The position numbers and the translations under genes were made by a program. Positions 1,016-53,082 of a DNA stretch of 64,000 bases are shown in pieces. Position 1 is the stretch's first letter; every line of letters begins with the position of its first letter. This DNA comes from a bacterium (GTDB taxonomy: Bacteria > Bdellovibrionota_C > UBA2361 > RFPC01): NCBI GenBank assembly GCA_030428205.1, contig JAUIBK010000016.1:11454-75453 (forward strand). The letters run 5' to 3'. Under the pieces are notes generated by a model that was given only the letters and a program-made list of their open reading frames with translations, searched no databases and was not told the DNA's origin.

Positions 1016-1103
1016 TGCTCACATGTCATTGATTTTATGAGTAATAAATGATACTTACGTTGTTTGCTTGCACCATGTAAAAGCAGATCTAGGGAGTATC
1101 AAA

Positions 1104-2591
1104 ATGGGCAATACCGCCGCTGAAGATCACAGCGAAAACCGCAGCCAAGAGAGCCAGAATGGCAGCTGTGATGACAATAGCGTAGCTACAAACGGACAGA
1201 TCAAACCAGATGTCCTAAAGCTCATGGCTCAGATCCGTGAGCGAGTAAAAGAAGATGCCTCGCAACAAGAAGATGTAAGACCGGCGTTTCGTCCTGAAAG
1301 CTCGGAGCCAGGCAAAGGAAGCAACCGCAAAGCTGGAGAGCTCCTCTATTCTGAAGAGCTCCGATATATCAACAGCAACTACTCGTACAGTCTCCGAAAT
1401 AACTTCGATTCGCTCACTTCTCACCGTCCAGGGATTCTTGGAAAGTTCATTGTAAAGGTAAAGCGTAAGCTGCTCTCGATTATTTGGGATAGCTTACTCA
1501 AAGAATACTTTGAAGCAGAAAAAGAGTATCAAGCAAATGTCGTTCGTTTTTTAAACGATGTGAGCAAGTATGTTGATGAGCGTGATGGATCAAACTTCTG
1601 GGAGCTTATCCGTAAGATCGATGTGGATGTGACAAAGGCCATCGAACGTATTGAACGAATAAGTGACGAGCAGATGGGTTCTATCCGGTCTTCTGAGCGG
1701 AGAGTGTTTGATGCTCTTGATGAAGCGCTAGCGAGCCTTCGTGGTTCTATAGAGGGGCTTACTGGCACAGTGCAAAAGCATGATGTTGGCCTCTGTGAGC
1801 TAGAGAGTGTCGCAAGTGGGCTTGAAGGGATCATTGCGAAACTTGGAAAAGACTCTGTTCCTCGTACGCAAGAAGAAGGAGAGAGCAAGCAGGTACCAGA
1901 CTACTCCTACCTTATGCTTGAAAACCGCTTTCGTGGTAGTGAAGAAGCTATTAAGAATCACCTCAAGATATACCCGCCAATTTTTCAAAATGCCTCTGCT
2001 CCTATCCTTGAGATCGGCTCTGGTAGGGGAGAGCTCCTTGAGCTCTTTCAAGAGGGTGGGAATGAAGCATATGGAGTTGATATCGACCACGCGATGGTTG
2101 AGGCAGCGTGTGCTAAAGGACTCCGTAGTGAGCTTGGTGACGGCATCGCTCACTTGCGCTCACTTGAGCCAAACTCTCTTGGTGGTGTTGTTGCTATCCA
2201 AGTTGTAGAGCACCTCACGCAAGCACAGCTCGAAGAGCTCTTTGAGCTCGTTGCCTCACGTGTTGTCTCAGGTGGAAAAGCTGTCTTTGAAACTATTAAT
2301 CCACAATCTGTTATGGCGCTCTCGTCGAACTACTTTAGAGACCCGACACATGTTTTTCCACTTCATCCAGATACCCTTTCGTACACTATGAAGTTAGCAG
2401 GGCTTCCCACTCCGAAGGTCACCAAAATCTCTCCTGTTCCTCAAGAAGCACAGCTCAAACCAATTCCTGTGGAATCGTACATGACACCACGTTGGGCGTT
2501 TGTGATTGAGCGGATGAACTGGAACTTTGATCGCCTCAACGATCTTCTCTATGGACACCAGGACTACTTCATTGAAGTAGAAGTTCCTTAA
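1104..2591 (+). CDS. Coiled-coil N-terminal domain fused to a class I SAM-dependent methyltransferase
   Basis: The motif I methyltransferase signature LEIGSGRGELLELF...GVDID is present. AGGGAG sits 9 nt upstream of the ATG at 1104. The ORF track starts at 1068. Confidence 0.6.
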   Translation: MGNTAAEDHSENRSQESQNGSCDDNSVATNGQIKPDVLKLMAQIRERVKEDASQQEDVRPAFRPESSEPGKGSNRKAGELLYSEELRYINSNYSYSLRNNFDSLTSHRPGILGKFIVKVKRKLLSIIWDSLLKEYFEAEKEYQANVVRFLNDVSKYVDERDGSNFWELIRKIDVDVTKAIERIERISDEQMGSIRSSERRVFDALDEALASLRGSIEGLTGTVQKHDVGLCELESVASGLEGIIAKLGKDSVPRTQEEGESKQVPDYSYLMLENRFRGSEEAIKNHLKIYPPIFQNASAPILEIGSGRGELLELFQEGGNEAYGVDIDHAMVEAACAKGLRSELGDGIAHLRSLEPNSLGGVVAIQVVEHLTQAQLEELFELVASRVVSGGKAVFETINPQSVMALSSNYFRDPTHVFPLHPDTLSYTMKLAGLPTPKVTKISPVPQEAQLKPIPVESYMTPRWAFVIERMNWNFDRLNDLLYGHQDYFIEVEVP

Positions 2592-2610
2592 TAGAGAGGG
2601 AGGAAGTACG

Positions 2611-3714
2611 ATGGCTAATATCCTTATTCTCGGCGTAAAAGTTCCTTTTACCAGTGGTGGGCAAGAAGTCTTAGTGCGAACGCTCTGTAAGGAGCTCAAC
2701 GCACGTGGCCACAACGCTGATGTTGTAGAACTTCCTTTTACTGTTTTTCCAAAGGAGAGTTTTCTTAATCAAGCTGCTATGTGGCGCGCCGTGGATCTCA
2801 CCACCTTTGGTGGAAAAGATGTGGATCTTGTTATTGCCACCAAGTTCCCAAGTTACTACGCTTCTCACCCAAAGAAGAGCCTCTGGCTTGTTCACCAGCA
2901 CCGTGCTTTGTATGACCTCTACGGTTCTCGTTATTCAGATATTTCTGATGATCCACGAGATGAAGCTTTGCGTCGGATGCTTGTTGAAGGCGACCGTAAG
3001 GTTATCGGCGAGTGTCAGTTCGTCTCGGGAATCTCTCAAAATGTAGTCAGTCGTCTTGAGAAGTATATCGATATTAAAGGCACAGCGCTCTATCCACCGC
3101 TTCCACAAGGAAGTGCATACCGACGGGGCGAATCTGAAGAGTATTTTCTCTCTGTTGGACGGTTGTGTGCCATCAAACGTGTTGATTTGATGCTCAAGGC
3201 GATGCCTATTGTTCACAACGTGGCAAAGCTTAAGATCGTTGGCACTGCTGATGAGCCTGGTGTTATGGAGTACTACAAAAACGAGATCGACAAGCACCAC
3301 CTCTGGGATAGGGTTGAGTTTCTTGGGCGTGTAAGTGACGAGGAACTTATTGATCTCTACTCGAAAGCGCTTGGAGTGTACTACGCACCACACGACGAAG
3401 ATTATGGATACGTTACCCTTGAAGCATTTGCTTCTGGCAAACCTGTACTTGCAGGAACAGATAGTGGGGGAGTCTTAGAGTTTGTCCGTCACGAAGAAAA
3501 CGGTCTTGTCGTAGATCCCACAAGTGATGCGTTTGGACACGCTGCAAACCGATTGATTGAAAACAAAGAGTGGGCTGCGCAACTCGGTGAAAACGGATTC
3601 TCGTTCATTCAAGAATCAGGGCTCTTAGAAAGTGGATGGGATACGGTTATTGATGGACTTCTCTCTCCACTTGAGAATACGTCATGTCAATCAGCTGTCG
3701 GATGTGGAGTATAA
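2611..3714 (+). CDS. Glycosyltransferase, GT4/GT1 family
   Basis: The C-terminal GT-B motif EAFASGKPVLAGTDSGGVLEFV...GLVVDP is present. GGGAGG RBS. Confidence 0.7.
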   Translation: MANILILGVKVPFTSGGQEVLVRTLCKELNARGHNADVVELPFTVFPKESFLNQAAMWRAVDLTTFGGKDVDLVIATKFPSYYASHPKKSLWLVHQHRALYDLYGSRYSDISDDPRDEALRRMLVEGDRKVIGECQFVSGISQNVVSRLEKYIDIKGTALYPPLPQGSAYRRGESEEYFLSVGRLCAIKRVDLMLKAMPIVHNVAKLKIVGTADEPGVMEYYKNEIDKHHLWDRVEFLGRVSDEELIDLYSKALGVYYAPHDEDYGYVTLEAFASGKPVLAGTDSGGVLEFVRHEENGLVVDPTSDAFGHAANRLIENKEWAAQLGENGFSFIQESGLLESGWDTVIDGLLSPLENTSCQSAVGCGV

Positions 3715-3720
3715 GTTTCT

Positions 3721-5052
3721 ATGTCGGCATCTGATAAACTCCGCATAGCTTGGTTTTCTCCTCTCGGCTCAGAGGGTGAGACGTCGATCTCTGCCTATGC
3801 AACAGAGACTCTTCTGCCGTATCTCACGGATCGTTTCGAGATAGAGCTTTTTCACGACTCTTTCTTCTCTCACAAGAAGTATCCGACGTATCACTACTTA
3901 AACGCGTTTTTGCGTGATAAGGAGCGTCCGTTTGATCTCTTCTTTTATCAGCTAGAAGACTCTCCGTGCACAAAATTTGTGAGAATGCACCTTGGGCTTA
4001 TGCCAGGGATAACGTGGTTTCACCACTTTTTTCTCTCTGATGATGGACCAGAACCAATTTTAAATAGTGGTTGGCAAGATACTGTGGATCACTTCTGTGG
4101 AAAGAGAACGGTGTGGCCTGAGCGAGGAAAAGAGTATACCCGTCCAGGTCCTCAAGCGTACCGCGAGGCAGGTCTTAGCTTTGCTTCGCTCTTTTCACTT
4201 GAGCGAGACCACGGTGAATACGAGAGACTTGTCACTCATAAGCTCCTTGCTGATAGTAATCAGCGCCAAAGTTTCTTTTTGCCACTACCTGTTTCAGAAG
4301 AAGTTTTCTCGTGTCGTAGTAAACAATCAACGACAGATGCTCCATTTCGTGTCGGATACTTTGGTACGCCACGTATTGAGCACCGAGCCCATAAGGTTCT
4401 TCAAGCACTCACAGAGAAGTATGAGCAAGAGGTGCAACTCCACTGGGTTGTCCCAGAAGAAGAGCTTGTGATTGCCCAAGAGAGACTTTCTGAGTTCGAT
4501 CTCGATGGTGTGCTCTATCCTCAAGCAACCCCTGAGCAGTGGAAGCAACTTCTCCCAGAGCTTGATTGTGCTCTGCATCCACTTTTTAGCGTTTTTGGAC
4601 AACCTGGAGCACCGCTTGCGATGAGCTTAGCTGCCGGCGTACCAACGGTTGTAACTGGATTTGGAAATACAGAGCGACTCGTAGACGAGGTGGCATGTAA
4701 GATTGAGCCAGGAAGTAGCGAAGCCACTCAGGTAGCCTCTGCGCTTCGAGAGTTGATGAAACAACCGAGACCGTTACAGAACAGAGAGGCCCAAGCCTTT
4801 GCTCGTGAGATGTACGATGTGCAAGGCGTGGCTGCTCAGCTCGGTGATACTTTTGAGTACCTAGTGAGCGGCGAACAAAGTTACCTACCACAAGCTATGA
4901 AACGGTGGCGCGCACTTGAGCAAGATGCAGCCGACTCGCTTCGAAAAGAAGTTTCCTCCTTTTTGCCAGCATCACTTTGGGAAGGGAAAGATGGAGAGTT
5001 GCTCAATCCTGTTTTCGAAGAACTCGGCTGGTCGTCGAAAGGAGAAGGGTAA
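3721..5052 (+). CDS. Glycosyltransferase-like protein, divergent GT-B fold
   Basis: The N-terminus RIAWFSPLGSEGETSIS and the C-terminal GAPLAMSLAAGVPTVV resemble GT1 architecture. Motifs are weak. Confidence 0.45.
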   Translation: MSASDKLRIAWFSPLGSEGETSISAYATETLLPYLTDRFEIELFHDSFFSHKKYPTYHYLNAFLRDKERPFDLFFYQLEDSPCTKFVRMHLGLMPGITWFHHFFLSDDGPEPILNSGWQDTVDHFCGKRTVWPERGKEYTRPGPQAYREAGLSFASLFSLERDHGEYERLVTHKLLADSNQRQSFFLPLPVSEEVFSCRSKQSTTDAPFRVGYFGTPRIEHRAHKVLQALTEKYEQEVQLHWVVPEEELVIAQERLSEFDLDGVLYPQATPEQWKQLLPELDCALHPLFSVFGQPGAPLAMSLAAGVPTVVTGFGNTERLVDEVACKIEPGSSEATQVASALRELMKQPRPLQNREAQAFAREMYDVQGVAAQLGDTFEYLVSGEQSYLPQAMKRWRALEQDAADSLRKEVSSFLPASLWEGKDGELLNPVFEELGWSSKGEG

Positions 5053-8296
<3,244 letters not shown>

Positions 8297-9831: not shown

Positions 9832-12800
9832 CTAAACCTCGGCAGGTGGCTCAATTGATATCCGTAGTGTACAGAATTCTTCGTCGTTTTGGATAGATCG
9901 TGCTCGCTGTTCTAGATGAAATCGGAAGCCGTTTCGATTTGCAAGCTGGTGAAGTCGCGCGGAGAAAAAGCGAGCACTTGTTGATTGTCGGGTATCAAGT
10001 TCCAGCCGTATCTCTCCACCTTCAGAGAGGTAGTGGTATCGGAGCAACTCTTCGAACCCTCTTGAAAGCCGAATGGCCGCTTCACGTTGCCTCTTACTTG
10101 AAGCAAAACTAGATACAACGATGAGTGGATTACCCTCTTCATCTCTTCCTTCGTAAGCCAAGAGGAAGGCATCCAGCTCACCATCTGGCTGAGTGTGCTT
10201 AAGAAGAAGTGAAGGTCTTCCCTTTTGATGATTGTTAATAGCTACAGCTGTAGCAAAGTGAAAGAGGTCTACCCCTTCATGATCGAGAACAACGGGATTA
10301 TCGGTATAAGCTATCCTTTCAAGTTGACGTACAGCTAACCAATCAGACTGCTCGATAAGAGAAACTTGAGGGGGCAGAGAAACCGGTGCGGTATATTTTG
10401 CTCTGCTCTCCTGAACCTCTCCTACCTCTCGAGAGAAAAGCCGTTCATTCTCACCAATCTTAAGCTGGATGACACTCTCTCCATAGTTATCAGAATATCC
10501 AATAGGGATTTCAGGTAAGAAGTTGTTCGGTTGTCGAGGAAGCTTTGTGACTACACTCGAGAATGCTTCACCGATCGGTATCCAGTCTTTGGAGGTATCC
10601 CAAGAGCTATTGAGACGATTCTGGTAATTTCCAAAGAAATCAGAGAGGAGTTCGGGGAGTAAGGTGGCTAGAGTGCCCTCTCGATAATTTGGATGCACTT
10701 CTAGGTTATCCAAAGCAAGTTCGGACTTTGCGCCAACTCGAATAATCTCATCACTTGCCTCAGCCTTACCAATGAGACCACGAAGTTGTTCAGATGCTGG
10801 AACCGGCACTCTAGAGACCCTCGTGAGCACACTTTGTGCAAAGGTTCGCTGCGAACCATCAGGCCTTTCAAGTCTAACAGTGAAAAAAGCAGCGCTCGGG
10901 TTCACCGTATAGCTGTTGGTTTTTCCTACACCAAATAAGGCGCATTCGGTTATATCGTTGGCAGCGATTACACCGAGCGGATCTGATGGAAGATGAATCT
11001 CTGCTATTACTGCTACTGGTTCGTCAGGAATCCCGAACTGAGGATTGAATAAGATCTCTCGCAGTTGCGCATGGAAGTGCTCGCGCCCAGAGGCGATCAT
11101 GAGAGGAGATGAGGTAATGCAATCAGGTTCTGAAATATACTGCTGAGGTGAAACACCATACTGAGATAGTAACCCTTTTACAGAGTGAAAGAGTTTCCCA
11201 CTATTTCGAGCAAGTGGCTTGTCACCCGACTGAGAGCTTCCGAGAGCTCGTTTCAACAGTTCATGTGGAGTTGCTTGTATTGCGTCTGGGTTCACTTCAT
11301 AACGAATTCGGAAAGGAGGGATACTTTTCGTCGCGTCTAGGGTGCCATCCATCCATGCAGTGCGAAGATCTTCTGGTGTAAGATCTAGGTGTTCGAACAG
11401 GAAGAGATTCGACACATTCCACTCTTTGTCAGCATCTTCATTGAGTGAACTGTCTGGGCGAGAAAAGAATGCTTCGGGAGCCGTGATAAGGTCCTGCACG
11501 GCAGAAAGATCTATCTTGCTCCCAGGATGACCTATGAGTGGGTCTATGAACTTTACTAAATTGAGGTCACCACTATCGACGACATTCTGAAGCTGTTCTT
11601 GCAAACCTGCTGTTAGAGCAAGCTCTTCCAGTTCAGCATACTGCCGAAGCTTTGCCCAGGATTGAAAGGGGGTGGTCTGTTGGCTGAGCTGTTTCGCAAG
11701 TTGCTGGAGATGTGGGAATCCGGAGAGAGTTGAGAGACGAGCCGATATTCCCTTTCTCTCAAAGGTACAGGTGTTTCCAATTTTCTTCAAAAGTTGAGTA
11801 GCACTCCCTCCGCTATAACTATGACCGTCCTGCTTGACCTGTGAAAGGATGTTGTGCGTAAAGGCTTCAAGTGAGAGTCCAGATTGGTGATAAAGCTTTA
11901 CGATAGCATGTATTCCGTGCAACGCAGCAACGGAGGAACGATTGGTATCTCGTAAGTACCAGAGTAATCTATCAGCTCCTAAGACTTCAGCTGCCTCGCG
12001 AAACTCTCCTTCAAGAGATTTTGCCATTTCCCATTGAGGAGAATACTTGAGAAGTGCTTCAAAGGTCGCTATTCCACCAAGTTCTGACGAATGAACGCCA
12101 TTGAAGTAGATCATGTCGAGATCAAGAAGTGAGATATGTAGTTTTTTTGCAGTAGGAAGGTCTGATTGGTCTACACAAGAGAACCACTCGGGATCTTCAA
12201 GCAAAGTTGCGACATACTCTTGATTCTCACGCTTGAAACGGACGAGTTCCTCAAGGGTCGTAACCTCAAATCCTTCCCTCAAGCATGCAATCACCTCGGG
12301 TGTGAAGCCTTCTAAAGCAGTAAGGTCATCTCCTAGGTAGTGTTCTGCTATTACTTGCGCGACTTGAGAGGAATGTCCTCCTCCTGCCATTTGAATCCCA
12401 ATTCGCTCGAAAGAAGAGCCTTCAAACTCAAAACAGCTCACCATCGCTTTCGCTGCGAGTTCTCTGACAGATTCAGGCTGAATGGAGAACTTCTCTATGA
12501 GATAATCGGCGCAACCAAATGCTCCTGCTGCAATCGCTCGCTCTACACTGAGAAGAACACTCTCTCTGATCTCTTCATGCTCCTCTAAGAGAAGCGTGGA
12601 AGTGTTATAGGCTGTAACAACTCGCTCGGGGTTCCAAGGGAAGGTGAGAGTTGAGGGGATTCCCGAAACAAGTTCACGCTGCACATCTTCGGCTCGGATA
12701 ATGTCATCTACTTCTTCTTTTGAAAGCGAGCAGCGATTGATTACATCGAGTGGATCGCCATCACCGTAAAGCCCCAATGTCTTCAGAAGTGCTTCTTTGA

Positions 12801-13017
12801 ACTCTCTCTGTTCGCCAGAGAGCCCTTGGAATGTTGCCCGTGCAAGATGAGGGTGCTGTATCCGAGTAAGGAGGTTCGTAAACTCTTCACTCGATATTGA
12901 TGTTTCAGCGCTGAGCGTCTGATCGCCCTCTGGGGCGTGGGGGAGAGAAGCTGTCTCTCCTCCTTCGTTATGAGTTATTAGCTCACCTAGTGGTGATAGA
13001 AGGGGAGTGTGCGCCAT
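9832..13017 (-). CDS. Large (1061 aa) acidic hypothetical protein, no recognisable domain
   Basis: A long uninterrupted ORF. It has no Walker, nuclease or other motif I can identify. Confidence 0.5.
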   Translation of the reverse strand: MAHTPLLSPLGELITHNEGGETASLPHAPEGDQTLSAETSISSEEFTNLLTRIQHPHLARATFQGLSGEQREFKEALLKTLGLYGDGDPLDVINRCSLSKEEVDDIIRAEDVQRELVSGIPSTLTFPWNPERVVTAYNTSTLLLEEHEEIRESVLLSVERAIAAGAFGCADYLIEKFSIQPESVRELAAKAMVSCFEFEGSSFERIGIQMAGGGHSSQVAQVIAEHYLGDDLTALEGFTPEVIACLREGFEVTTLEELVRFKRENQEYVATLLEDPEWFSCVDQSDLPTAKKLHISLLDLDMIYFNGVHSSELGGIATFEALLKYSPQWEMAKSLEGEFREAAEVLGADRLLWYLRDTNRSSVAALHGIHAIVKLYHQSGLSLEAFTHNILSQVKQDGHSYSGGSATQLLKKIGNTCTFERKGISARLSTLSGFPHLQQLAKQLSQQTTPFQSWAKLRQYAELEELALTAGLQEQLQNVVDSGDLNLVKFIDPLIGHPGSKIDLSAVQDLITAPEAFFSRPDSSLNEDADKEWNVSNLFLFEHLDLTPEDLRTAWMDGTLDATKSIPPFRIRYEVNPDAIQATPHELLKRALGSSQSGDKPLARNSGKLFHSVKGLLSQYGVSPQQYISEPDCITSSPLMIASGREHFHAQLREILFNPQFGIPDEPVAVIAEIHLPSDPLGVIAANDITECALFGVGKTNSYTVNPSAAFFTVRLERPDGSQRTFAQSVLTRVSRVPVPASEQLRGLIGKAEASDEIIRVGAKSELALDNLEVHPNYREGTLATLLPELLSDFFGNYQNRLNSSWDTSKDWIPIGEAFSSVVTKLPRQPNNFLPEIPIGYSDNYGESVIQLKIGENERLFSREVGEVQESRAKYTAPVSLPPQVSLIEQSDWLAVRQLERIAYTDNPVVLDHEGVDLFHFATAVAINNHQKGRPSLLLKHTQPDGELDAFLLAYEGRDEEGNPLIVVSSFASSKRQREAAIRLSRGFEELLRYHYLSEGGEIRLELDTRQSTSARFFSARLHQLANRNGFRFHLEQRARSIQNDEEFCTLRISIEPPAEV

Positions 13018-13267
13018 ATTCGTGTCCTACAAGTCCCTGTTGGCAGGCTACAGAACTCCCAGCAGCTAATCAAAAATATCTCTCTGGAGAATGAGGAGAG
13101 CAAAGCTAAGCGTAGGAGATTTTATAGCTTGAGTAGTTTCAATGGCTTCTGAGAGTGCATCGATGAGCTCTAGGCTATGATTTCATATGGAGTATCTCTC
13201 GAGTATAAAATTTCAAGAAAGCTCGAATTTACAGGAATCTAACTGTTCATCTTGAGTATATACCCCG

Positions 13268-13488
13268 TGAGATCAGGTCTGTCGTGCTCTCTGAATGTTT
13301 GTGGCGCGTATGGTGGTGTGAAAACTGGTCGCTTTCACGTGTTTTTCTGCACGGTGTATATTTGTCTTCTCCAGGGAAGTACGCTGCTAACGCAGCATAC
13401 TTCCCGTGCGGCGTCCCCGAGGACGCCTTGAAAAGCGCATGGCGTTTTTTATACTCAAATCAGCTTTGTCTCCGACAAACCTGATCTC
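13268..13488 (+). repeat. Structured repeat element, copy 1. It is a candidate sRNA, cis-leader or MITE-like element, and its second copy is at 51213-51411.
   Basis: About 80% identity to 51213-51411. It has the terminal inverted repeat caggtctgtcg...cgacaaacctg and internal helices carrying compensatory changes. Its 3' hairpin carries a T-tract. Confidence 0.6.
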
Positions 13489-13589: not shown

Positions 13590-14732
13590 ATGAATTGCAA
13601 ACAAAAATGTCTTTTTATTCTTAAAAGTCTCTCGATAGTTTCACTTTTTCTTTTCGCTATGAGCCCTACTGCTTATTCAGAGGTTACCTGTGTGAAGGTC
13701 AAGTTGAATAAAAAGAAGAAGCCAAAGCTCGTTACTAAAGTTTTCCCAGATGCTTGCCCCGGAAAATTTGTACAGATTCAAGATACCAACGCAACTGTTC
13801 AAGGTGCGCAGGGGCCAAAGGGAGATACTGGGGCGCAAGGACCTCAAGGGCAGACTGGCCCGCAAGGCCCACAAGGATTGCAGGGGCTCCAGGGAGTGCC
13901 GGGAGTCGATGGGGCAGATCTGTATGAACGTACCATTGTCGTTCCTGCTGGAGAGGCGCCAACGGAGAATGGTAGTGCCCTTCTGAATGCTGCTTCTGGG
14001 CTTGTTGGAACTGTCGATGCTCCTTGGATGATTGAGCTTGAGAGCGGCACGTATGATCTTGGAGACCTTGTTCTTGAGCTTGGGACTTACGTGTCTCTTC
14101 GTGGAGCTGATACTCATAGCACTGTTGTGACAGGTTCGTCGTCCAGTGCAGTCGTTGATACAAATACTGGTAGCTCTCTTCGCAATATGTCAATTTTTGG
14201 AACTGCTATCACCACAAGCACCTTGTCTGGAGTTGTACGTGTTGATGACGACAACGATGTTCTTATTGAGAATGTCAAAATGACAAGCACTGGTCGTGGC
14301 TTGCTACTTGAGAATTGCTCTGGAGTGAAAATAAATCGTATCGACATTACAGCAGCTGGTTATGCTATTAATACGGATCATTCATCGCTTGATACCACGA
14401 TTTCAGATTCTCAAATAACCTCAACCGGTGATTCTGGTGTCGATTTTGGTACTTCGACTTCCCATACTATCGTTGAGCGTTGTGTCGTTACTGCCACGGC
14501 AATAGATCAGAGTGCTCTGCGAAGTAGTGGAGGAAGTGGTATCGTTCGTCATTCAACTTTGATTTCAAGCTTTGGTGGCACACTTGAAAGCTCAAATGGG
14601 AACACTGACATCGTAATCTCTCAAACGTATGTTGATGTTGAAGATTCTTTCAACATGCATTTTACAGGGGGAACAGCATCTTGTACTGCTATTTCCACAG
14701 ACAGTACATTTAGCACAACTACTTGTCTTTAG
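13590..14732 (+). CDS. Secreted collagen-like triple-helix repeat protein with a C-terminal right-handed beta-helix (pectate-lyase-like) domain
   Basis: Signal peptide, 15 G-X-Y repeats (GAQGPKGDTGAQGPQGQTGPQGPQG...), then Thr/Ser/Gly-rich beta-helix-type repeats. Confidence 0.65.
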   Translation: MNCKQKCLFILKSLSIVSLFLFAMSPTAYSEVTCVKVKLNKKKKPKLVTKVFPDACPGKFVQIQDTNATVQGAQGPKGDTGAQGPQGQTGPQGPQGLQGLQGVPGVDGADLYERTIVVPAGEAPTENGSALLNAASGLVGTVDAPWMIELESGTYDLGDLVLELGTYVSLRGADTHSTVVTGSSSSAVVDTNTGSSLRNMSIFGTAITTSTLSGVVRVDDDNDVLIENVKMTSTGRGLLLENCSGVKINRIDITAAGYAINTDHSSLDTTISDSQITSTGDSGVDFGTSTSHTIVERCVVTATAIDQSALRSSGGSGIVRHSTLISSFGGTLESSNGNTDIVISQTYVDVEDSFNMHFTGGTASCTAISTDSTFSTTTCL

Positions 14733-14828
14733 TGTTGCGATAAGTTCATTTGAAACAGCACGAATACTCTCTTTTCGCCCCGCTGAGCGGTTTGCGGCGG
14801 GGCCTCTGCAGAGTTCAGACAAGCCTCA

Positions 14829-17378
14829 TCAGGTATTACTTTCTATAAGATAGTTGTCGTCATCTGAGGCATCTTCTTCAGAGCATGCATATGTTTTTAC
14901 TGGAAGTTGTTTCGCAGCACCAATCGCTTGCTTAGCGAGTCTATGAATACGTTGGAGCTTTTTCTTTCGCTTTGTGCCTTTGAGGGCAAGGCGTAGTACT
15001 TTCTTCGCTTGTGACTTTAATGAGCGTATTGAATTTATGTACGTTTTCTTCTCTGAGCGAGTCTTCTTTTTTGTACAGAGAAGGGAGTCGTTGCATTTGA
15101 GAAGTTGCAGTTTCGTAACATCTCTACTTGCGCCTATCGCTTGTTCGTGAAGGAGGTTAAGAGTAGTAGACTCTTCAAGCAGTGCAGTCTGGTTGCTGCT
15201 TGACGTGTATGCTTTATGAGCAAGAGAAAGAGCAAGTTCTACCATGGCGGTGAGTTTTCGATTCGCTTTGATTATTTTCTTGCTCTTATTTTTTGTCTTA
15301 CAGTTATAATCTGCGAAATTTCTTTGTCGTACGACGACTGCTGGAAGGACTTCGCCTGTTGAGAGAGCTATGGAGTTGGTAGCGAGTGTGAGATCCTCAC
15401 GGTCTATGCTCAGGTTGTAGTCTCCTGCTGGGACATTCTGAAATGTAAATGTGTTTCCTTCTTCCAGAAGAGTGACGAAGGAACGAGGATGAGAAGATAT
15501 TCCACTCTCAGAAGTTGCGTCTGCTTCTCCTCCTGTTCTTGGAGTAAGGTGAGCTTGGGTGCCTGAGAGATCCGAAGAGGCTCCACCGACAGTACCACGA
15601 ACATCATAAAGGTCTTCTCCATCCTCTTGGCTTGTAGGTGTAGGAGCGGGAAGAGGTGGCGCATCGGGGAATTCCGCTGGTTGTACAACTTCGGTGAGAG
15701 CCGTAAGCTTTTCGTTTTCCCCAAGAGTAAGAAATGGACCATAGAGAAAACTACCAGGATGAGGGATGACAAATCGAATCGTATTCGTATAGCCATAGTA
15801 TGCTACATAAGGAGTTTCAGCGACTGATGTATCAAGATGTTGAATGCCAACTATTCGAGGAAATTCTTCTGGGTGAACACCGATACTGCCATACCAGTCC
15901 CCATTCTCGTAATCAAAACTTGGAAGTTCTTCTCTCCGAACCCAATAACCAGCGGTGTGCACGAGCTGATCATCATCAAAACTAGCGAAGCTCGAAATAG
16001 GGCTTATGAAGTTGACAAAGCTACTTGATACGCTTTTATCACCTCGATCGACTGTTTTATAGAGATAGAGGTTTCTGAAGTAATCATCCGACACAGCTTT
16101 TTCGACGAAAAGGACCGCATCACCATAGAATCCAAGACTTGAAAGAAGGGTAGAGTCTCCATTCAAAGAGAGGAGAGTTTCTTCATCGTCTCCATCTACC
16201 AAGTCAACACTCACTATGGTCTGTGAATCACTGCAGTAGTAGAGTCGGCCATAAATATCATCAGCTAACAGGCAGTAGACCGAAGAGTTTTGAAGAGTGA
16301 GAAAGTCTTCCACGTTTGTGCCATCTGCATCGGCCATTTTAATTTTGACGGTATTTCCGCTTGCATCCACCCAATACAGTTTTTCTGTCTCCACAGAATA
16401 GCTCATTGCCTTTACGTCTCCGATAGTATCGGAATCAAATACAGGCACGATTTCTTTCGTTATGTTTGTCCAAAATATTCGGGAAGTATTGAGTTGTGTA
16501 TCACGAACAGCAAAGTACATTCTTGTATCATCATAGATGCTCGAGGTGGGCTCCTGTGTGTCCCCTGTAGTAAAGTTCGCTATGATATCATAACCTTTTT
16601 GAGAAGCGACTGCGCTTAGAGAAGACCCATTTGTATTGACACTGCTGAGAAGTGTCCCTGAAGAAGGTGCGCCAATGAAGAGCAGCTTTTGAAGAGTGTT
16701 ATCATATGTAATTCCACGGGGAGAATTTGTACTTGAAGAGAGGAATGCTTCAGGAGAACTTCCATCGGTATTACATCGATAGATGGCATCTTTTGTATGG
16801 TTCGACCAATAGAGTTTTCCATTGAATAGAGTAAGATTGGTGAGGGTGTCTCCTTGGGCAATATTGTCGAAGAGAGAAGATTGATTGAGTCCATCACTGA
16901 GGTTCACACGCTCGATTCCTTCGAGGCTTGCGTAGTACAGAGTGTTTGTTGACTCGCTTACGAACAGACCATAGGGGTCTGACATACCAACAAGAAACAG
17001 CTCTTTGTTGCTACCATCTAGATCGGCTCGATAGATAGCTGCTTCCTGTGGATCGCTCCAGAGTATTTTATTATTTGTCAGGTCGAGTGCGATATCGTTT
17101 ATGGAGCTACTTGCTGAGGCAAAAATGGTGACGATATTGCTCCCATCCCGATTGGCTCGTTTTATTGAGGGGCCAGAGTCACTGTAATACAGGTGGTTAT
17201 TCTCAGGATCGTATGCGAGGGCTCTCGTTGCTGACGCAATGAAGGTTGAAGTTACGCTAGTCTCGCTGTCAACTAGTTTAATATCGCTGCCTGTAGCAAC
17301 AAGGATGTCCGCTGATAAGGGAAGCGACGATAGAAGGAGCAAAGTAAAGAGTATTCGAAGGAGGCTCATATATTTCAT
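14829..17378 (-). CDS. Secreted YWTD/LDL-receptor class B beta-propeller repeat protein with a Lys-rich C-terminus
   Basis: Signal peptide. Repeats of type LYYSD...IKRANRDGSN, ILWSD...IYRADLDGSN and LYWSN...IYRCNTDGS. The C-terminal tail is KK-rich. Confidence 0.6.
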   Translation of the reverse strand: MKYMSLLRILFTLLLLSSLPLSADILVATGSDIKLVDSETSVTSTFIASATRALAYDPENNHLYYSDSGPSIKRANRDGSNIVTIFASASSSINDIALDLTNNKILWSDPQEAAIYRADLDGSNKELFLVGMSDPYGLFVSESTNTLYYASLEGIERVNLSDGLNQSSLFDNIAQGDTLTNLTLFNGKLYWSNHTKDAIYRCNTDGSSPEAFLSSSTNSPRGITYDNTLQKLLFIGAPSSGTLLSSVNTNGSSLSAVASQKGYDIIANFTTGDTQEPTSSIYDDTRMYFAVRDTQLNTSRIFWTNITKEIVPVFDSDTIGDVKAMSYSVETEKLYWVDASGNTVKIKMADADGTNVEDFLTLQNSSVYCLLADDIYGRLYYCSDSQTIVSVDLVDGDDEETLLSLNGDSTLLSSLGFYGDAVLFVEKAVSDDYFRNLYLYKTVDRGDKSVSSSFVNFISPISSFASFDDDQLVHTAGYWVRREELPSFDYENGDWYGSIGVHPEEFPRIVGIQHLDTSVAETPYVAYYGYTNTIRFVIPHPGSFLYGPFLTLGENEKLTALTEVVQPAEFPDAPPLPAPTPTSQEDGEDLYDVRGTVGGASSDLSGTQAHLTPRTGGEADATSESGISSHPRSFVTLLEEGNTFTFQNVPAGDYNLSIDREDLTLATNSIALSTGEVLPAVVVRQRNFADYNCKTKNKSKKIIKANRKLTAMVELALSLAHKAYTSSSNQTALLEESTTLNLLHEQAIGASRDVTKLQLLKCNDSLLCTKKKTRSEKKTYINSIRSLKSQAKKVLRLALKGTKRKKKLQRIHRLAKQAIGAAKQLPVKTYACSEEDASDDDNYLIESNT

Positions 17379-17489: not shown

Positions 17490-17993
17490 TCATGAGCTTT
17501 GTGTATCATCACTGCAGGTCGAATCTTCGATTGCCTTATTGAGAAGTTCGTCAAATCCCTTTTCGGGAACAATTCGGTACCCACAACCAGGAAGCAATCC
17601 TCCACCGAGTTGAACCATCTCGGAGTGGGGATATCGACGACAGAGAGCCGGTCGAGACTCATAAATTCCACATTTGTTATCTGCTCGCAGGTTGGTGCAA
17701 GTATACCTAAGGTAGCCCTCTTCAGTTTGAGATCCGTTTGGTTGAAACATCTCATAGACTGGAAATTTCTTTTTGAGTTTTTCAAATGCAGCCTGAGAGG
17801 TGACAGGCTTGCCTCGGTCAACGAGTATAAGATTGCGGCAGCAATTTCCCGTTTGCCTGCAGCTTCCTTCAATCCGGAGCTTGTTCTTTTTCTTCTTAAA
17901 AAGAGAGAAGTAGAGATCGGTTTCCGTTAAGCGGGTCCAAAGGTTCTTTAACATGGAGTCATTGTACATAGGGAAAGAGATCAAGATACTCAT
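17490..17993 (-). CDS. YkgJ-family (UPF0153) zinc/iron-chelating cysteine-cluster protein
   Basis: CRQTGNCC...C-IYESRPALCRRYP cysteine signature. Confidence 0.6.
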   Translation of the reverse strand: MSILISFPMYNDSMLKNLWTRLTETDLYFSLFKKKKNKLRIEGSCRQTGNCCRNLILVDRGKPVTSQAAFEKLKKKFPVYEMFQPNGSQTEEGYLRYTCTNLRADNKCGIYESRPALCRRYPHSEMVQLGGGLLPGCGYRIVPEKGFDELLNKAIEDSTCSDDTQSS

Positions 17994-38181: not shown

Positions 38182-38343
38182 GAGGCGGAAGCGGATACCA
38201 AGAATAAGACCAAAACGAAGATATAGGTCAAGGCGGAGGCTGAGAAAAAGATAAAGAGCAAGGAGATCCTATTTCTCAGCCTCTATCTCAGTCTTCGTCT
38301 AGATCTTGGTTTTGGTCTTATTCTTGGCCTTGGTCTCCGCCTC
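38182..38343. repeat. Long imperfect palindrome of 6-bp tandem units, copy A. The same family is at 52864-53082.
   Basis: Arm GGCGGA AGCGGA TACCAA GAATAA GACCAA... pairs with TCTTGG TTTTGG TCTTAT TCTTGG CCTTGG TCTCCG, with a perfect 18-bp core. Confidence 0.6.
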
Positions 38344-51114: not shown

Positions 51115-51212
51115 TTAGTCTTCGTGGCATATTCCCCGAGATCGACAATGCGGAGCTCTTGCAGCATCGAGGGATGGAAGTATCCAAGGCCACCAATGGG
51201 GATATACCCCGT

Positions 51213-51411
51213 AACCTCAGGTTTGTCGTGCTCTCGGAGTATGGTGCAGCGTATCGTGGTGTGAAAGCTTGTCGCTTTCACGCGTATTTCCCCACGGGGT
51301 ATATTTGTCCTCCCCAGGCCCATAAATGGGCCGTGCGGCCTCCCCGAGGAGGCCTCGAAAATGCTTCGCATTTTATACTCAAGCAGCTTTGTCTGCGACA
51401 AACCTGGGTTT
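51213..51411 (+). repeat. Structured repeat element, copy 2, the same family as 13268-13488
   Basis: caggtttgtcg...cgacaaacctg perfect 11-bp terminal inverted repeat. Internal helices are conserved with compensatory changes. Confidence 0.6.
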
Positions 51412-52863: not shown

Positions 52864-53082
52864 GGTCTTAGCCTTAGTCTTAGTCTTAGTCTATAATCTT
52901 GGTCTTGGCCTGATTCTTAGCGTTGGCCTCCGCCTATAAAAACTCCCACTTTCACCTCAGCATGCACGCGTACGGGAACGTCTACGTTAACGTTTCATTT
53001 TAAATGCGAGGATCAGGCTGATGCCAAGAATAGGACCAAGACCAAGATGTAGACTAAGGCTAAGACTAAGGCTAAGGCTGAG
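52864..53082. repeat. Long palindrome of 6-bp tandem units, copy B. The arms are separated by an 88-bp spacer.
   Basis: Left arm CTTAGC CTTAGT CTTAGT...TCTTGG TCTTGG. The right arm is its reverse complement (CCAAGA...CTAAGG CTAAGG). The spacer contains acgttaacgt, gcatgc and acgcgt palindromes. Confidence 0.6.

Follow-up and report, generated by a model that had tools for sequence, protein, structure and literature searches.

Two convergent genes for predicted exported proteins

A 64-kb stretch of bacterial DNA, referred to in full as the window, carries two neighbouring genes that face each other. ORF A (13590–14732, + strand) encodes a collagen-like protein of 380 amino acids (aa), and ORF B (14829–17378, − strand) encodes an 849-aa protein with YWTD repeats. 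An earlier note on this DNA had placed both genes at exactly these coordinates and in this convergent orientation, and had presented them as a eukaryote-like pair that might form a module for surface adhesion or prey-host interaction. The two stop codons are separated by 96 nucleotides (nt), and because the genes are convergent they do not constitute an operon and cannot be co-transcribed. Within the gap lies a G+C-rich 9-bp hairpin (14777–14803), which does not qualify as a canonical intrinsic terminator since a U-run is absent on both strands; the fold of the whole stretch from 14725 to 14835 is not exceptional (z = −1.16). Exact copies of both proteins are recorded in one NCBI contig and one Logan assembly, in the same gene order.

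Both proteins start with a signal-peptide-like N-terminus, as had been proposed, judged by a heuristic that considers positive residues, a hydrophobic 12-mer and a cleavage motif. In ORF A (aa 1–30; 13590–13679, +; MNCKQKCLFILKSLSIVSLFLFAMSPTAYS), three K/R residues are followed by a hydrophobic 12-mer (mean Kyte-Doolittle 2.25) and a predicted cleavage site between AYS and E, and an AGGAG Shine-Dalgarno sequence stands 7 nt ahead of the ATG. In ORF B (aa 1–23; 17310–17378, −), positive residues are likewise followed by a hydrophobic 12-mer (mean Kyte-Doolittle 2.32) and a predicted cleavage site between LSA and D.

The propeller half of ORF B

The predicted cleavage site of ORF B is followed by a motif, A-D-I-L-V-A-T-G-S, that is conserved across the family to which the protein belongs. 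The first YWTD beta-propeller (aa 24–275; 16554–17309, −) comprises four strong class B blades (aa 52–219) with weaker blades on either flank, and a second propeller-like region (aa 286–455; 16014–16523, −) has YWTD-like blades (FWTN, YWVD, YYCS). A segment without family assignment comes next (aa 456–565; 15684–16013, −). It is the most conserved part of the protein in comparison with an orthologue of 71% identity, P0002 (non-synonymous divergence, pN, 0.095), and may complete the second propeller. The propeller assignment in the earlier note is borne out by Pfam, in which Ldl_recept_b (PF00058; 47.4 bits, cut-off 21) and DUF5050 (PF16472; 44.5 bits, cut-off 27) are both matched above their cut-offs. 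A profile built from four of the protein’s own blades recovered the four strong blades at aa 52–219 and two to three weaker ones at aa 296–404. An AlphaFold model based on a two-sequence alignment reached a predicted local distance difference test score (pLDDT) of 70–85 at aa 50–220 and 70–80 at aa 320–410, and is usable in these two regions only; confidence is very low at aa 456–565.

Among solved structures, the relatives of ORF B are metazoan. A phmmer search of the PDB returned chains of LRP2, LRP4, LRP6, nidogen and LDLR, with E-values of 2e-25 (~92 bits) for one two-propeller LRP6 chain and 1e-13 for one single propeller, and the best Foldseek matches were the tandem propellers of LRP6 (E ~1e-21, TM-scores ~0.2–0.3). 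Like the metazoan YWTD-EGF modules (LDLR, LRP2/4/5/6, nidogen), ORF B is built from YWTD-type blades of ~42 residues. It differs from them in that no EGF module packs on the propeller and LDL-A repeats are absent (no EGF or Ldl_recept_a match in Pfam with E up to 1), and in the absence of a transmembrane segment. Identity to the metazoan propellers is ~15–20% in structural alignments, the second propeller is divergent, and the C-terminal half is unrelated to any metazoan receptor.

A word-indexed protein search with full-length ORF B returned P0002 as the one orthologue, all other matches being confined to the propellers. These propeller-only relatives carry domains of bacterial type (dockerin, FlgD-Ig, T9SS tail, Big_2), and one of them is named from Lewinella. 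Since they score up to 284 bits, compared to ~92 bits for LRP6, ORF B is nearer to these proteins than to the metazoan ones. The term “eukaryote-like” says no more than where structures happen to have been solved. In the comparison with P0002, synonymous divergence is saturated (pS 0.76) whereas pN is low (0.19), which indicates a real gene under purifying selection (dN/dS ~0.07–0.08 where it can be estimated). YWTD propellers had also been described as uncommon in bacteria. They are indeed a minority there, but Pfam has a sister family, DUF5050 (LRP1-like_beta_prop), after which one relative of ORF B is named.

The propeller fold also raises the question of catalysis. ORF B could be an exported hydrolase or lyase rather than a binder, with ORF A as an unrelated neighbour, and six-bladed propellers of the same Pfam clan do include lactonases, paraoxonase-like arylesterases and virginiamycin B lyase. 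ORF B and its relatives have weak matches to SGL (24.9 bits in ORF B, below the cut-off), Arylesterase and Vgb_lyase, and the NHL-type members of its family match SGL and Arylesterase as well. On the other hand, ORF B stays below the curated cut-offs of all these families while it exceeds those of Ldl_recept_b and DUF5050, and the YWTD propellers with known function (LDLR, LRP, nidogen) are protein-binding modules. We consider an enzymatic ORF B improbable.

A C-terminal module defines the ORF B family

The most distinctive part of ORF B lies beyond the propellers. A Pro-rich linker leads into a CarboxypepD_reg/SdrD_B-like (prealbumin-like) beta-sandwich (aa 566–690; 15309–15683, −), which is followed by a basic domain, tentatively described as four-helical, with four cysteines (C693, C762, C768 and C832), an L-P-x-K-T-Y-x-C motif and an acidic end (aa 691–849; 14832–15308, −). 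This is the part that had been called a Lys-rich tail. It is basic, with 36 K/R versus 16 D/E in the last 175 aa of the protein, yet it is a conserved four-cysteine domain, predicted to be helical, and not a low-complexity tail. The domain has no sequence match in Pfam, NCBIfam or the PDB.

An exhaustive phmmer search with aa 456–849 gave 29 matches among 1.84 billion representative proteins (E 1e-192 to 5.5e-4), many of them 835–960 aa long and matching at their C-terminus. The four-cysteine pattern is found within the C-terminal 175 aa in 24 of the 29, including two short fragments, and the four cysteines are invariant both in an alignment of full-length sequences (13 members) and in one of C-terminal sequences (21 members). 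We define the B family by the combination of the CarboxypepD_reg-like sandwich with the domain of ~150 aa that has four invariant cysteines and an LPxK[TS][YF]xC motif. The common layout consists of a signal peptide with the ADILVA motif, YWTD propellers, a Pro/Thr-rich linker of variable length, the sandwich, and the basic, predicted-helical domain of ~150 aa. In some proteins the same C-terminal module is fused to other heads, namely NHL propellers (P0154 and P0167) and fn3 (P0164), so the module appears to behave as a constant handle under a variable head.

Only two members of the family carry names, “DUF5050 domain-containing protein” and “hypothetical protein”, and both originate from one metagenome-assembled genome (MAG) of Oligoflexia (Bdellovibrionota). 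DUF5050 comprises uncharacterised exported bacterial propeller proteins and is matched by 8 of 13 members of the B family, which is set apart from it by the ADILVATGS motif, the tandem propellers, the CarboxypepD_reg-like sandwich and the four-cysteine domain, the last of which is not part of DUF5050. A scan of 185,579 species genomes with two peptide patterns derived from the ORF B alignment found no relatives, and neither did a scan of JGI metagenomes. The literature on DUF5050, on bacterial YWTD proteins and on collagen-like proteins in Bdellovibrio yielded nothing specific. ORF B is a member of a small bacterial family that has not been described before.

A short collagen-like stretch and a candidate beta-helix head in ORF A

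In ORF A, the signal-peptide-like N-terminus leads into a Lys-rich segment containing two cysteines, C34 and C56 (aa 31–71; 13680–13802, +), which fall in the motif C-x-[KR]-V...C-P-x-x-F-[VI]-x-[IL]-x-D-T. Then follow 13 uninterrupted G-X-Y triplets, rich in Gln and Pro (aa 72–110; 13803–13919, +), which constitute the sole G-X-Y run of at least six triplets in the six frames of the window. The collagen run anticipated in the earlier note is thus present, at 13 triplets instead of about 15, and Pfam Collagen (PF01391) is matched above its cut-off (30.1 versus 27.2 bits, aa 72–108). As a triple helix, 13 triplets would be ~11 nm long. This number is near the lower limit for a triple helix that is stable without a trimerising neighbour domain.

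The remainder of the protein is a Ser/Thr-rich head (aa 111–380; 13920–14729, +), matched by a family of right-handed parallel beta-helices and ending with a pair of cysteines (C365 and C379). Pfam Beta_helix (PF13229) scores 34.6 bits against a cut-off of 25.9 (aa 205–343), and the start of the head has weaker matches to NosD (20 bits, below the cut-off) and to TIGR03808/NosD-family profiles (aa 146–295). The stretch matched by these profiles contains a junction motif, Y-E-R-T-I-V-V...E-x-G-T-Y-D-L-G...YV-x-L-x-G, that resembles the usual start of right-handed beta-helix domains. A single-sequence AlphaFold model of ORF A was unusable (mean pLDDT 36) and, as the structure model failed, it is the 34.6-bit profile match that points to this fold. 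The description of the head as pectate-lyase-like should be read as naming a fold class and not an enzyme.

Relatives of the head are few. It has no sequence match in the PDB and no relative in viral contigs, and when it was used alone in a word-indexed search of 5.8 billion proteins, ORF A itself was the only match. The corresponding search with full-length ORF A was swamped by collagen matches, and two true relatives, P0050 (430 aa) and P0129 (412 aa), stood out among those of higher coverage. In both, the head comes after a collagen stretch and has 38% identity to the ORF A head over the first ~100 aa (E 2e-12 and 3e-14), the junction motif is in common, and the protein terminates in a cysteine pair. 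P0129 also has a loose version of the two-cysteine motif.

Collagen-like proteins are established in prokaryotes and are often surface-exposed (PMC4565658). ORF A shares several features with characterised examples such as Scl1/Scl2 of Streptococcus, BclA of Bacillus, Lcl of Legionella and Bucl of Burkholderia: an N-terminus for export (predicted in ORF A), uninterrupted G-X-Y triplets without hydroxyproline, and an adjoining non-collagenous globular domain. It is not a member of the named groups, as the NCBIfam equivalogs for Lcl, SclB and SclA are matched through the triplets only and far below their cut-offs (35.2 versus 500, 25.7 versus 325 and 25.8 versus 400 bits). Unlike the named proteins, ORF A lacks an LPXTG anchor and a C1q-like or V domain. 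Its stalk is short, and the globular part, a candidate parallel beta-helix, stands at the C-terminus, with the same head seen in P0050 and P0129 only.

A different comparison is offered by the mosaic adhesive trimer (MAT) fibres of Bdellovibrio bacteriovorus, which are trimeric and exported, with beta-helical parts and varied adhesive tips (PMC10769870). They come from Bdellovibrionota, the phylum that also includes the named members of the B family, and are a possible functional analogy for ORF A. The two differ in construction, MAT fibres being ~800–1200 aa long, built as triple beta-helices whose chains intertwine and often equipped with an S74 chaperone (PMC10769870), whereas ORF A has 380 aa, a collagen stalk and the profile of a single-chain right-handed beta-helix. 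No S74 or MAT-type match was found among the Pfam matches of ORF A (E up to 1) or its 25 best PHROG matches, and the words “collagen” and “propeller” are absent from the main text of the MAT paper (PMC10769870).

Composition and origin of the two genes

The window is an ordinary stretch of bacterial chromosome. Besides ORF A and ORF B, it contains 38 genes, which served as the comparison set for composition, among them ligA, gltX, pnp, tyrS, and genes for aconitase, a class-V aminotransferase, flagellin, a methyltransferase and three glycosyltransferases. Housekeeping genes in the vicinity (ligA, gltX, pnp, tyrS, aconitase) speak against an island or a prophage, and phage genes were found neither in the window nor flanking ORF A and ORF B. 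With respect to G+C content (GC), G+C content at third codon positions (GC3) and synonymous-codon likelihood, both genes fall inside the spread of the other 38 (z −0.3 to −1.7). Their composition is typical of the window and carries no signature of recent transfer, and on this ground recent transfer was rejected for both genes. Typical genomic composition was also what the earlier note had named as refuting its reading, and by that measure the idea of transfer fails.

These data bear on a further explanation, in which the pair is a recently acquired cassette with a YWTD propeller from a metazoan host and ORF A as the remnant of a prophage tail fibre or tailspike. It would fit the fact that ORF B’s only relatives with solved structures are metazoan, and that ORF A matches many tail-fibre families in PHROG and has phage minor tail proteins among its database matches. 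However, nearly all PHROG and database matches of ORF A are confined to the G-X-Y triplets (8–21% of the query in nearly all of those listed) and the head is absent from viral contigs; a phage origin of ORF A was rejected for these reasons. ORF B, for its part, is without an EGF module, gives better scores with proteins that carry bacterial-type domains than with LRP6, and shares its whole architecture with a family in which the only members with names are bacterial. Together with the housekeeping flanks and the typical GC, GC3 and codon usage, this largely refutes the cassette, which we regard as very improbable.

Does the pair recur?

The earlier note had joined the two proteins into a module, and the genomic contexts of other B-family genes provide a means of judging this. 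Eight contexts have a readable downstream neighbour, the window being left out of the count as it was chosen for this feature; no downstream neighbour can be read in L089, whose contig stops at the B gene. A collagen-like downstream neighbour is present in one of the eight, L086. In the context of P0002, the closest orthologue, an unrelated ORF of 203 aa lies downstream in the place of ORF A, and no collagen-like neighbour was found in L084, L085, L087/88, L090/91, L092/93 or the context of P0172. Conversely, P0050 and P0129, which have the ORF A head, have no YWTD neighbour gene.

The one recurrence merits description. In L086, a collagen-like gene of 441 aa (11028–12353, +) lies on the same strand as the gene for the B homologue P0149 (26% identity) and 150 nt downstream of it. 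Its product has 24 triplets and a Gly/Ser/Asn-rich C-terminal region without a Pfam match, and its N-terminus aligns with aa 10–110 of ORF A (E 3e-10), including the two-cysteine motif. As the heads of the two collagen-like proteins differ, and the flanking genes differ as well, the resemblance between the window and L086 is not one of simple conserved synteny. Within ~181 kb of DNA from B-family contexts plus the window, there are only two collagen-like genes, and both are immediate neighbours of a B gene. A rough estimate for the recurrence of a collagen-like neighbour is p ~0.01–0.07, depending on the number of collagen-like genes per genome.

It is conceivable that ORF A and ORF B form a two-component surface fibre or adhesion system, in which the fibre docks on the YWTD propellers through the N-terminal cysteine motif or the stalk, and ORF B is held in the envelope by the four-cysteine module. 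The arrangement in L086, the ORF A-like N-terminus of its collagen-like protein, the departure from simple synteny and the exclusive position of the two collagen-like genes beside B genes all speak for such a system. Against it stand the convergent orientation in the window, the unrelated gene beside the 71% orthologue, the seven of eight readable contexts without a collagen-like neighbour, and the lack of YWTD neighbours for P0050 and P0129. Furthermore, the window pair prompted the search, so that one independent recurrence counts. On balance, a two-component system is unlikely, and the notion of a module is weakened by these same observations; a recurrent partnership of fibre and propeller is suggestive and not conclusive. 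The adjacency of ORF A and ORF B probably does not reflect obligate functional coupling.

Other genes recur around the B family. A gene for a small class-I S-adenosylmethionine (SAM) methyltransferase immediately precedes the B-family gene in three of nine other contexts (L084, 7110–7850; L092, 5133–5732; and the context of P0172), and in three of the nine there are glycosyltransferase genes within a few kb. In the window, a methyltransferase gene and three glycosyltransferase genes occupy 1068–6285, at 8–13 kb from ORF B. The B family may be loosely linked to loci for surface glycans or protein glycosylation. Directly upstream of ORF B, on the same strand and at a distance of 111 nt, is a gene for a CxxCxxCC protein, putatively zinc/iron-chelating (17490–17993, −); the other B-family genes examined lack such a neighbour upstream.

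Repeat elements and other features of the window

A structured repeat element occurs twice in the window. Copy 1 (13253–13485, +), of ~230 nt, lies 105 nt upstream of ORF A, so the collagen gene is indeed preceded by it as had been described, and copy 2 (51197–51408, +) is upstream of the class-V aminotransferase gene. The copies are ~80% identical, and both are found in divergent intergenic regions. Both fold far more stably than shuffled versions (z −4.7 and −6.7), and a terminal inverted repeat or long-range helix of 12 bp, CAGGTyTGTCG...CGACAAACCTG, closes each of them. In one hairpin a G-C pair is exchanged for C-G by a clean compensatory change, and a second hairpin gives way to a different one in copy 2. 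A promoter-like sequence, TTGAAA-N16-TATACT, is conserved (copy 1: 13428–13455). The element has no match in Rfam, and when metagenomes were scanned with its 20-nt core, the one hit, L083, was due to chance and is not a copy. It could be a repeat resembling a miniature inverted-repeat transposable element (MITE) or a small RNA gene. Because copy 2 precedes an unrelated aminotransferase gene, nothing ties the element specifically to the collagen gene, and it probably does not belong to the protein pair. Directly upstream of copy 1 is an ORF of 1061 aa (9832–13017, −) that has no Pfam, NCBIfam or PHROG match and is recorded from this contig only.

A second family of palindromic repeats consists of runs of TCTTAG/CCTTAG/TCTTGG hexamers (38182–38343 and ~52870–53070) that form long imperfect inverted repeats in two intergenic regions. 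The window contains no tRNA gene and has no match to any Rfam family, the rRNA families included. Among the matches listed for its PNPase, the best is 59% identical and comes from a Binatia MAG, and MAGs of Nitrospira, Myxococcota and Desulfobacterota come next. The flagellin gene (61950–63842, +) encodes a protein of 630 aa whose conserved N- and C-terminal domains are separated by a large insert, and the source organism is likely motile. In L092, a flagellin gene lies 4 kb from the B homologue.

Discussion

We propose, with a probability of roughly 60%, that ORF A and ORF B are two native, separately transcribed genes for Sec-exported proteins of an uncultivated flagellated bacterium. The domains, the existence of the B family, purifying selection on ORF B and the native composition are results of the analysis; export, trimerisation, type of ligand and cellular location are what we infer. 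According to this proposal, ORF A would run from the signal peptide through the Lys-rich two-cysteine segment and the 13 triplets to a beta-helix head of ~270 aa closed by the cysteine pair. If ORF A behaves like the bacterial collagen-like proteins that have been characterised, three of its chains would assemble into a ~11-nm stalk bearing three such heads, each of which would most likely bind or cut a glycan. In ORF B, the propellers would provide ligand binding, and the sandwich and four-cysteine module would most likely serve as a handle for anchoring, oligomerisation or sorting, stabilised by two disulfides or a Cys4 metal site. Binding, anchoring and surface display are read here from the domain families of both proteins, and the surface adhesion or prey interaction suggested by the earlier note may be viewed in the same way.

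Several points weigh against this proposal or parts of it. The collagen-like neighbour in L086 argues that the adjacency may not be accidental. The beta-helix fold of ORF A is proposed from a profile match, and the four-helix description of the ORF B C-terminus, together with the clustering of its cysteines in the model, is tentative, model confidence being very low in this part. Finally, as the signal peptides are assigned by a heuristic, both proteins could be periplasmic rather than located at the surface.

A more far-reaching scenario would combine two elements. The sandwich and four-cysteine module would be a new, lineage-restricted anchoring or sorting domain of Bdellovibrionota-like bacteria that displays interchangeable propeller heads (YWTD, NHL) or fn3 heads, and, in at least some species including the present one, the YWTD version would partner a collagen-like fibre with a matching N-terminal cysteine motif in a two-part envelope or prey-contact structure. 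That both elements hold is a long shot.

Bacterial collagen-like proteins and YWTD-type propellers were both known already, and the pair itself is no surprise; both multi-domain proteins are assembled mostly from known parts. The main gain is a small uncharacterised family with a four-cysteine C-terminal domain that occurs in proteins with different heads. Second in interest comes a collagen-like fibre as a possible recurrent partner, for which the hint is weak. The single recurrence provides a fibre-propeller hypothesis that is cheap to test. Bdellovibrionota, the phylum of the Oligoflexia MAG, includes predatory bacteria. Should the module indeed anchor or sort the proteins that carry it, the known C-terminal display signals would gain a new entry, and the surface biology of a phylum that has been little studied would become more accessible.

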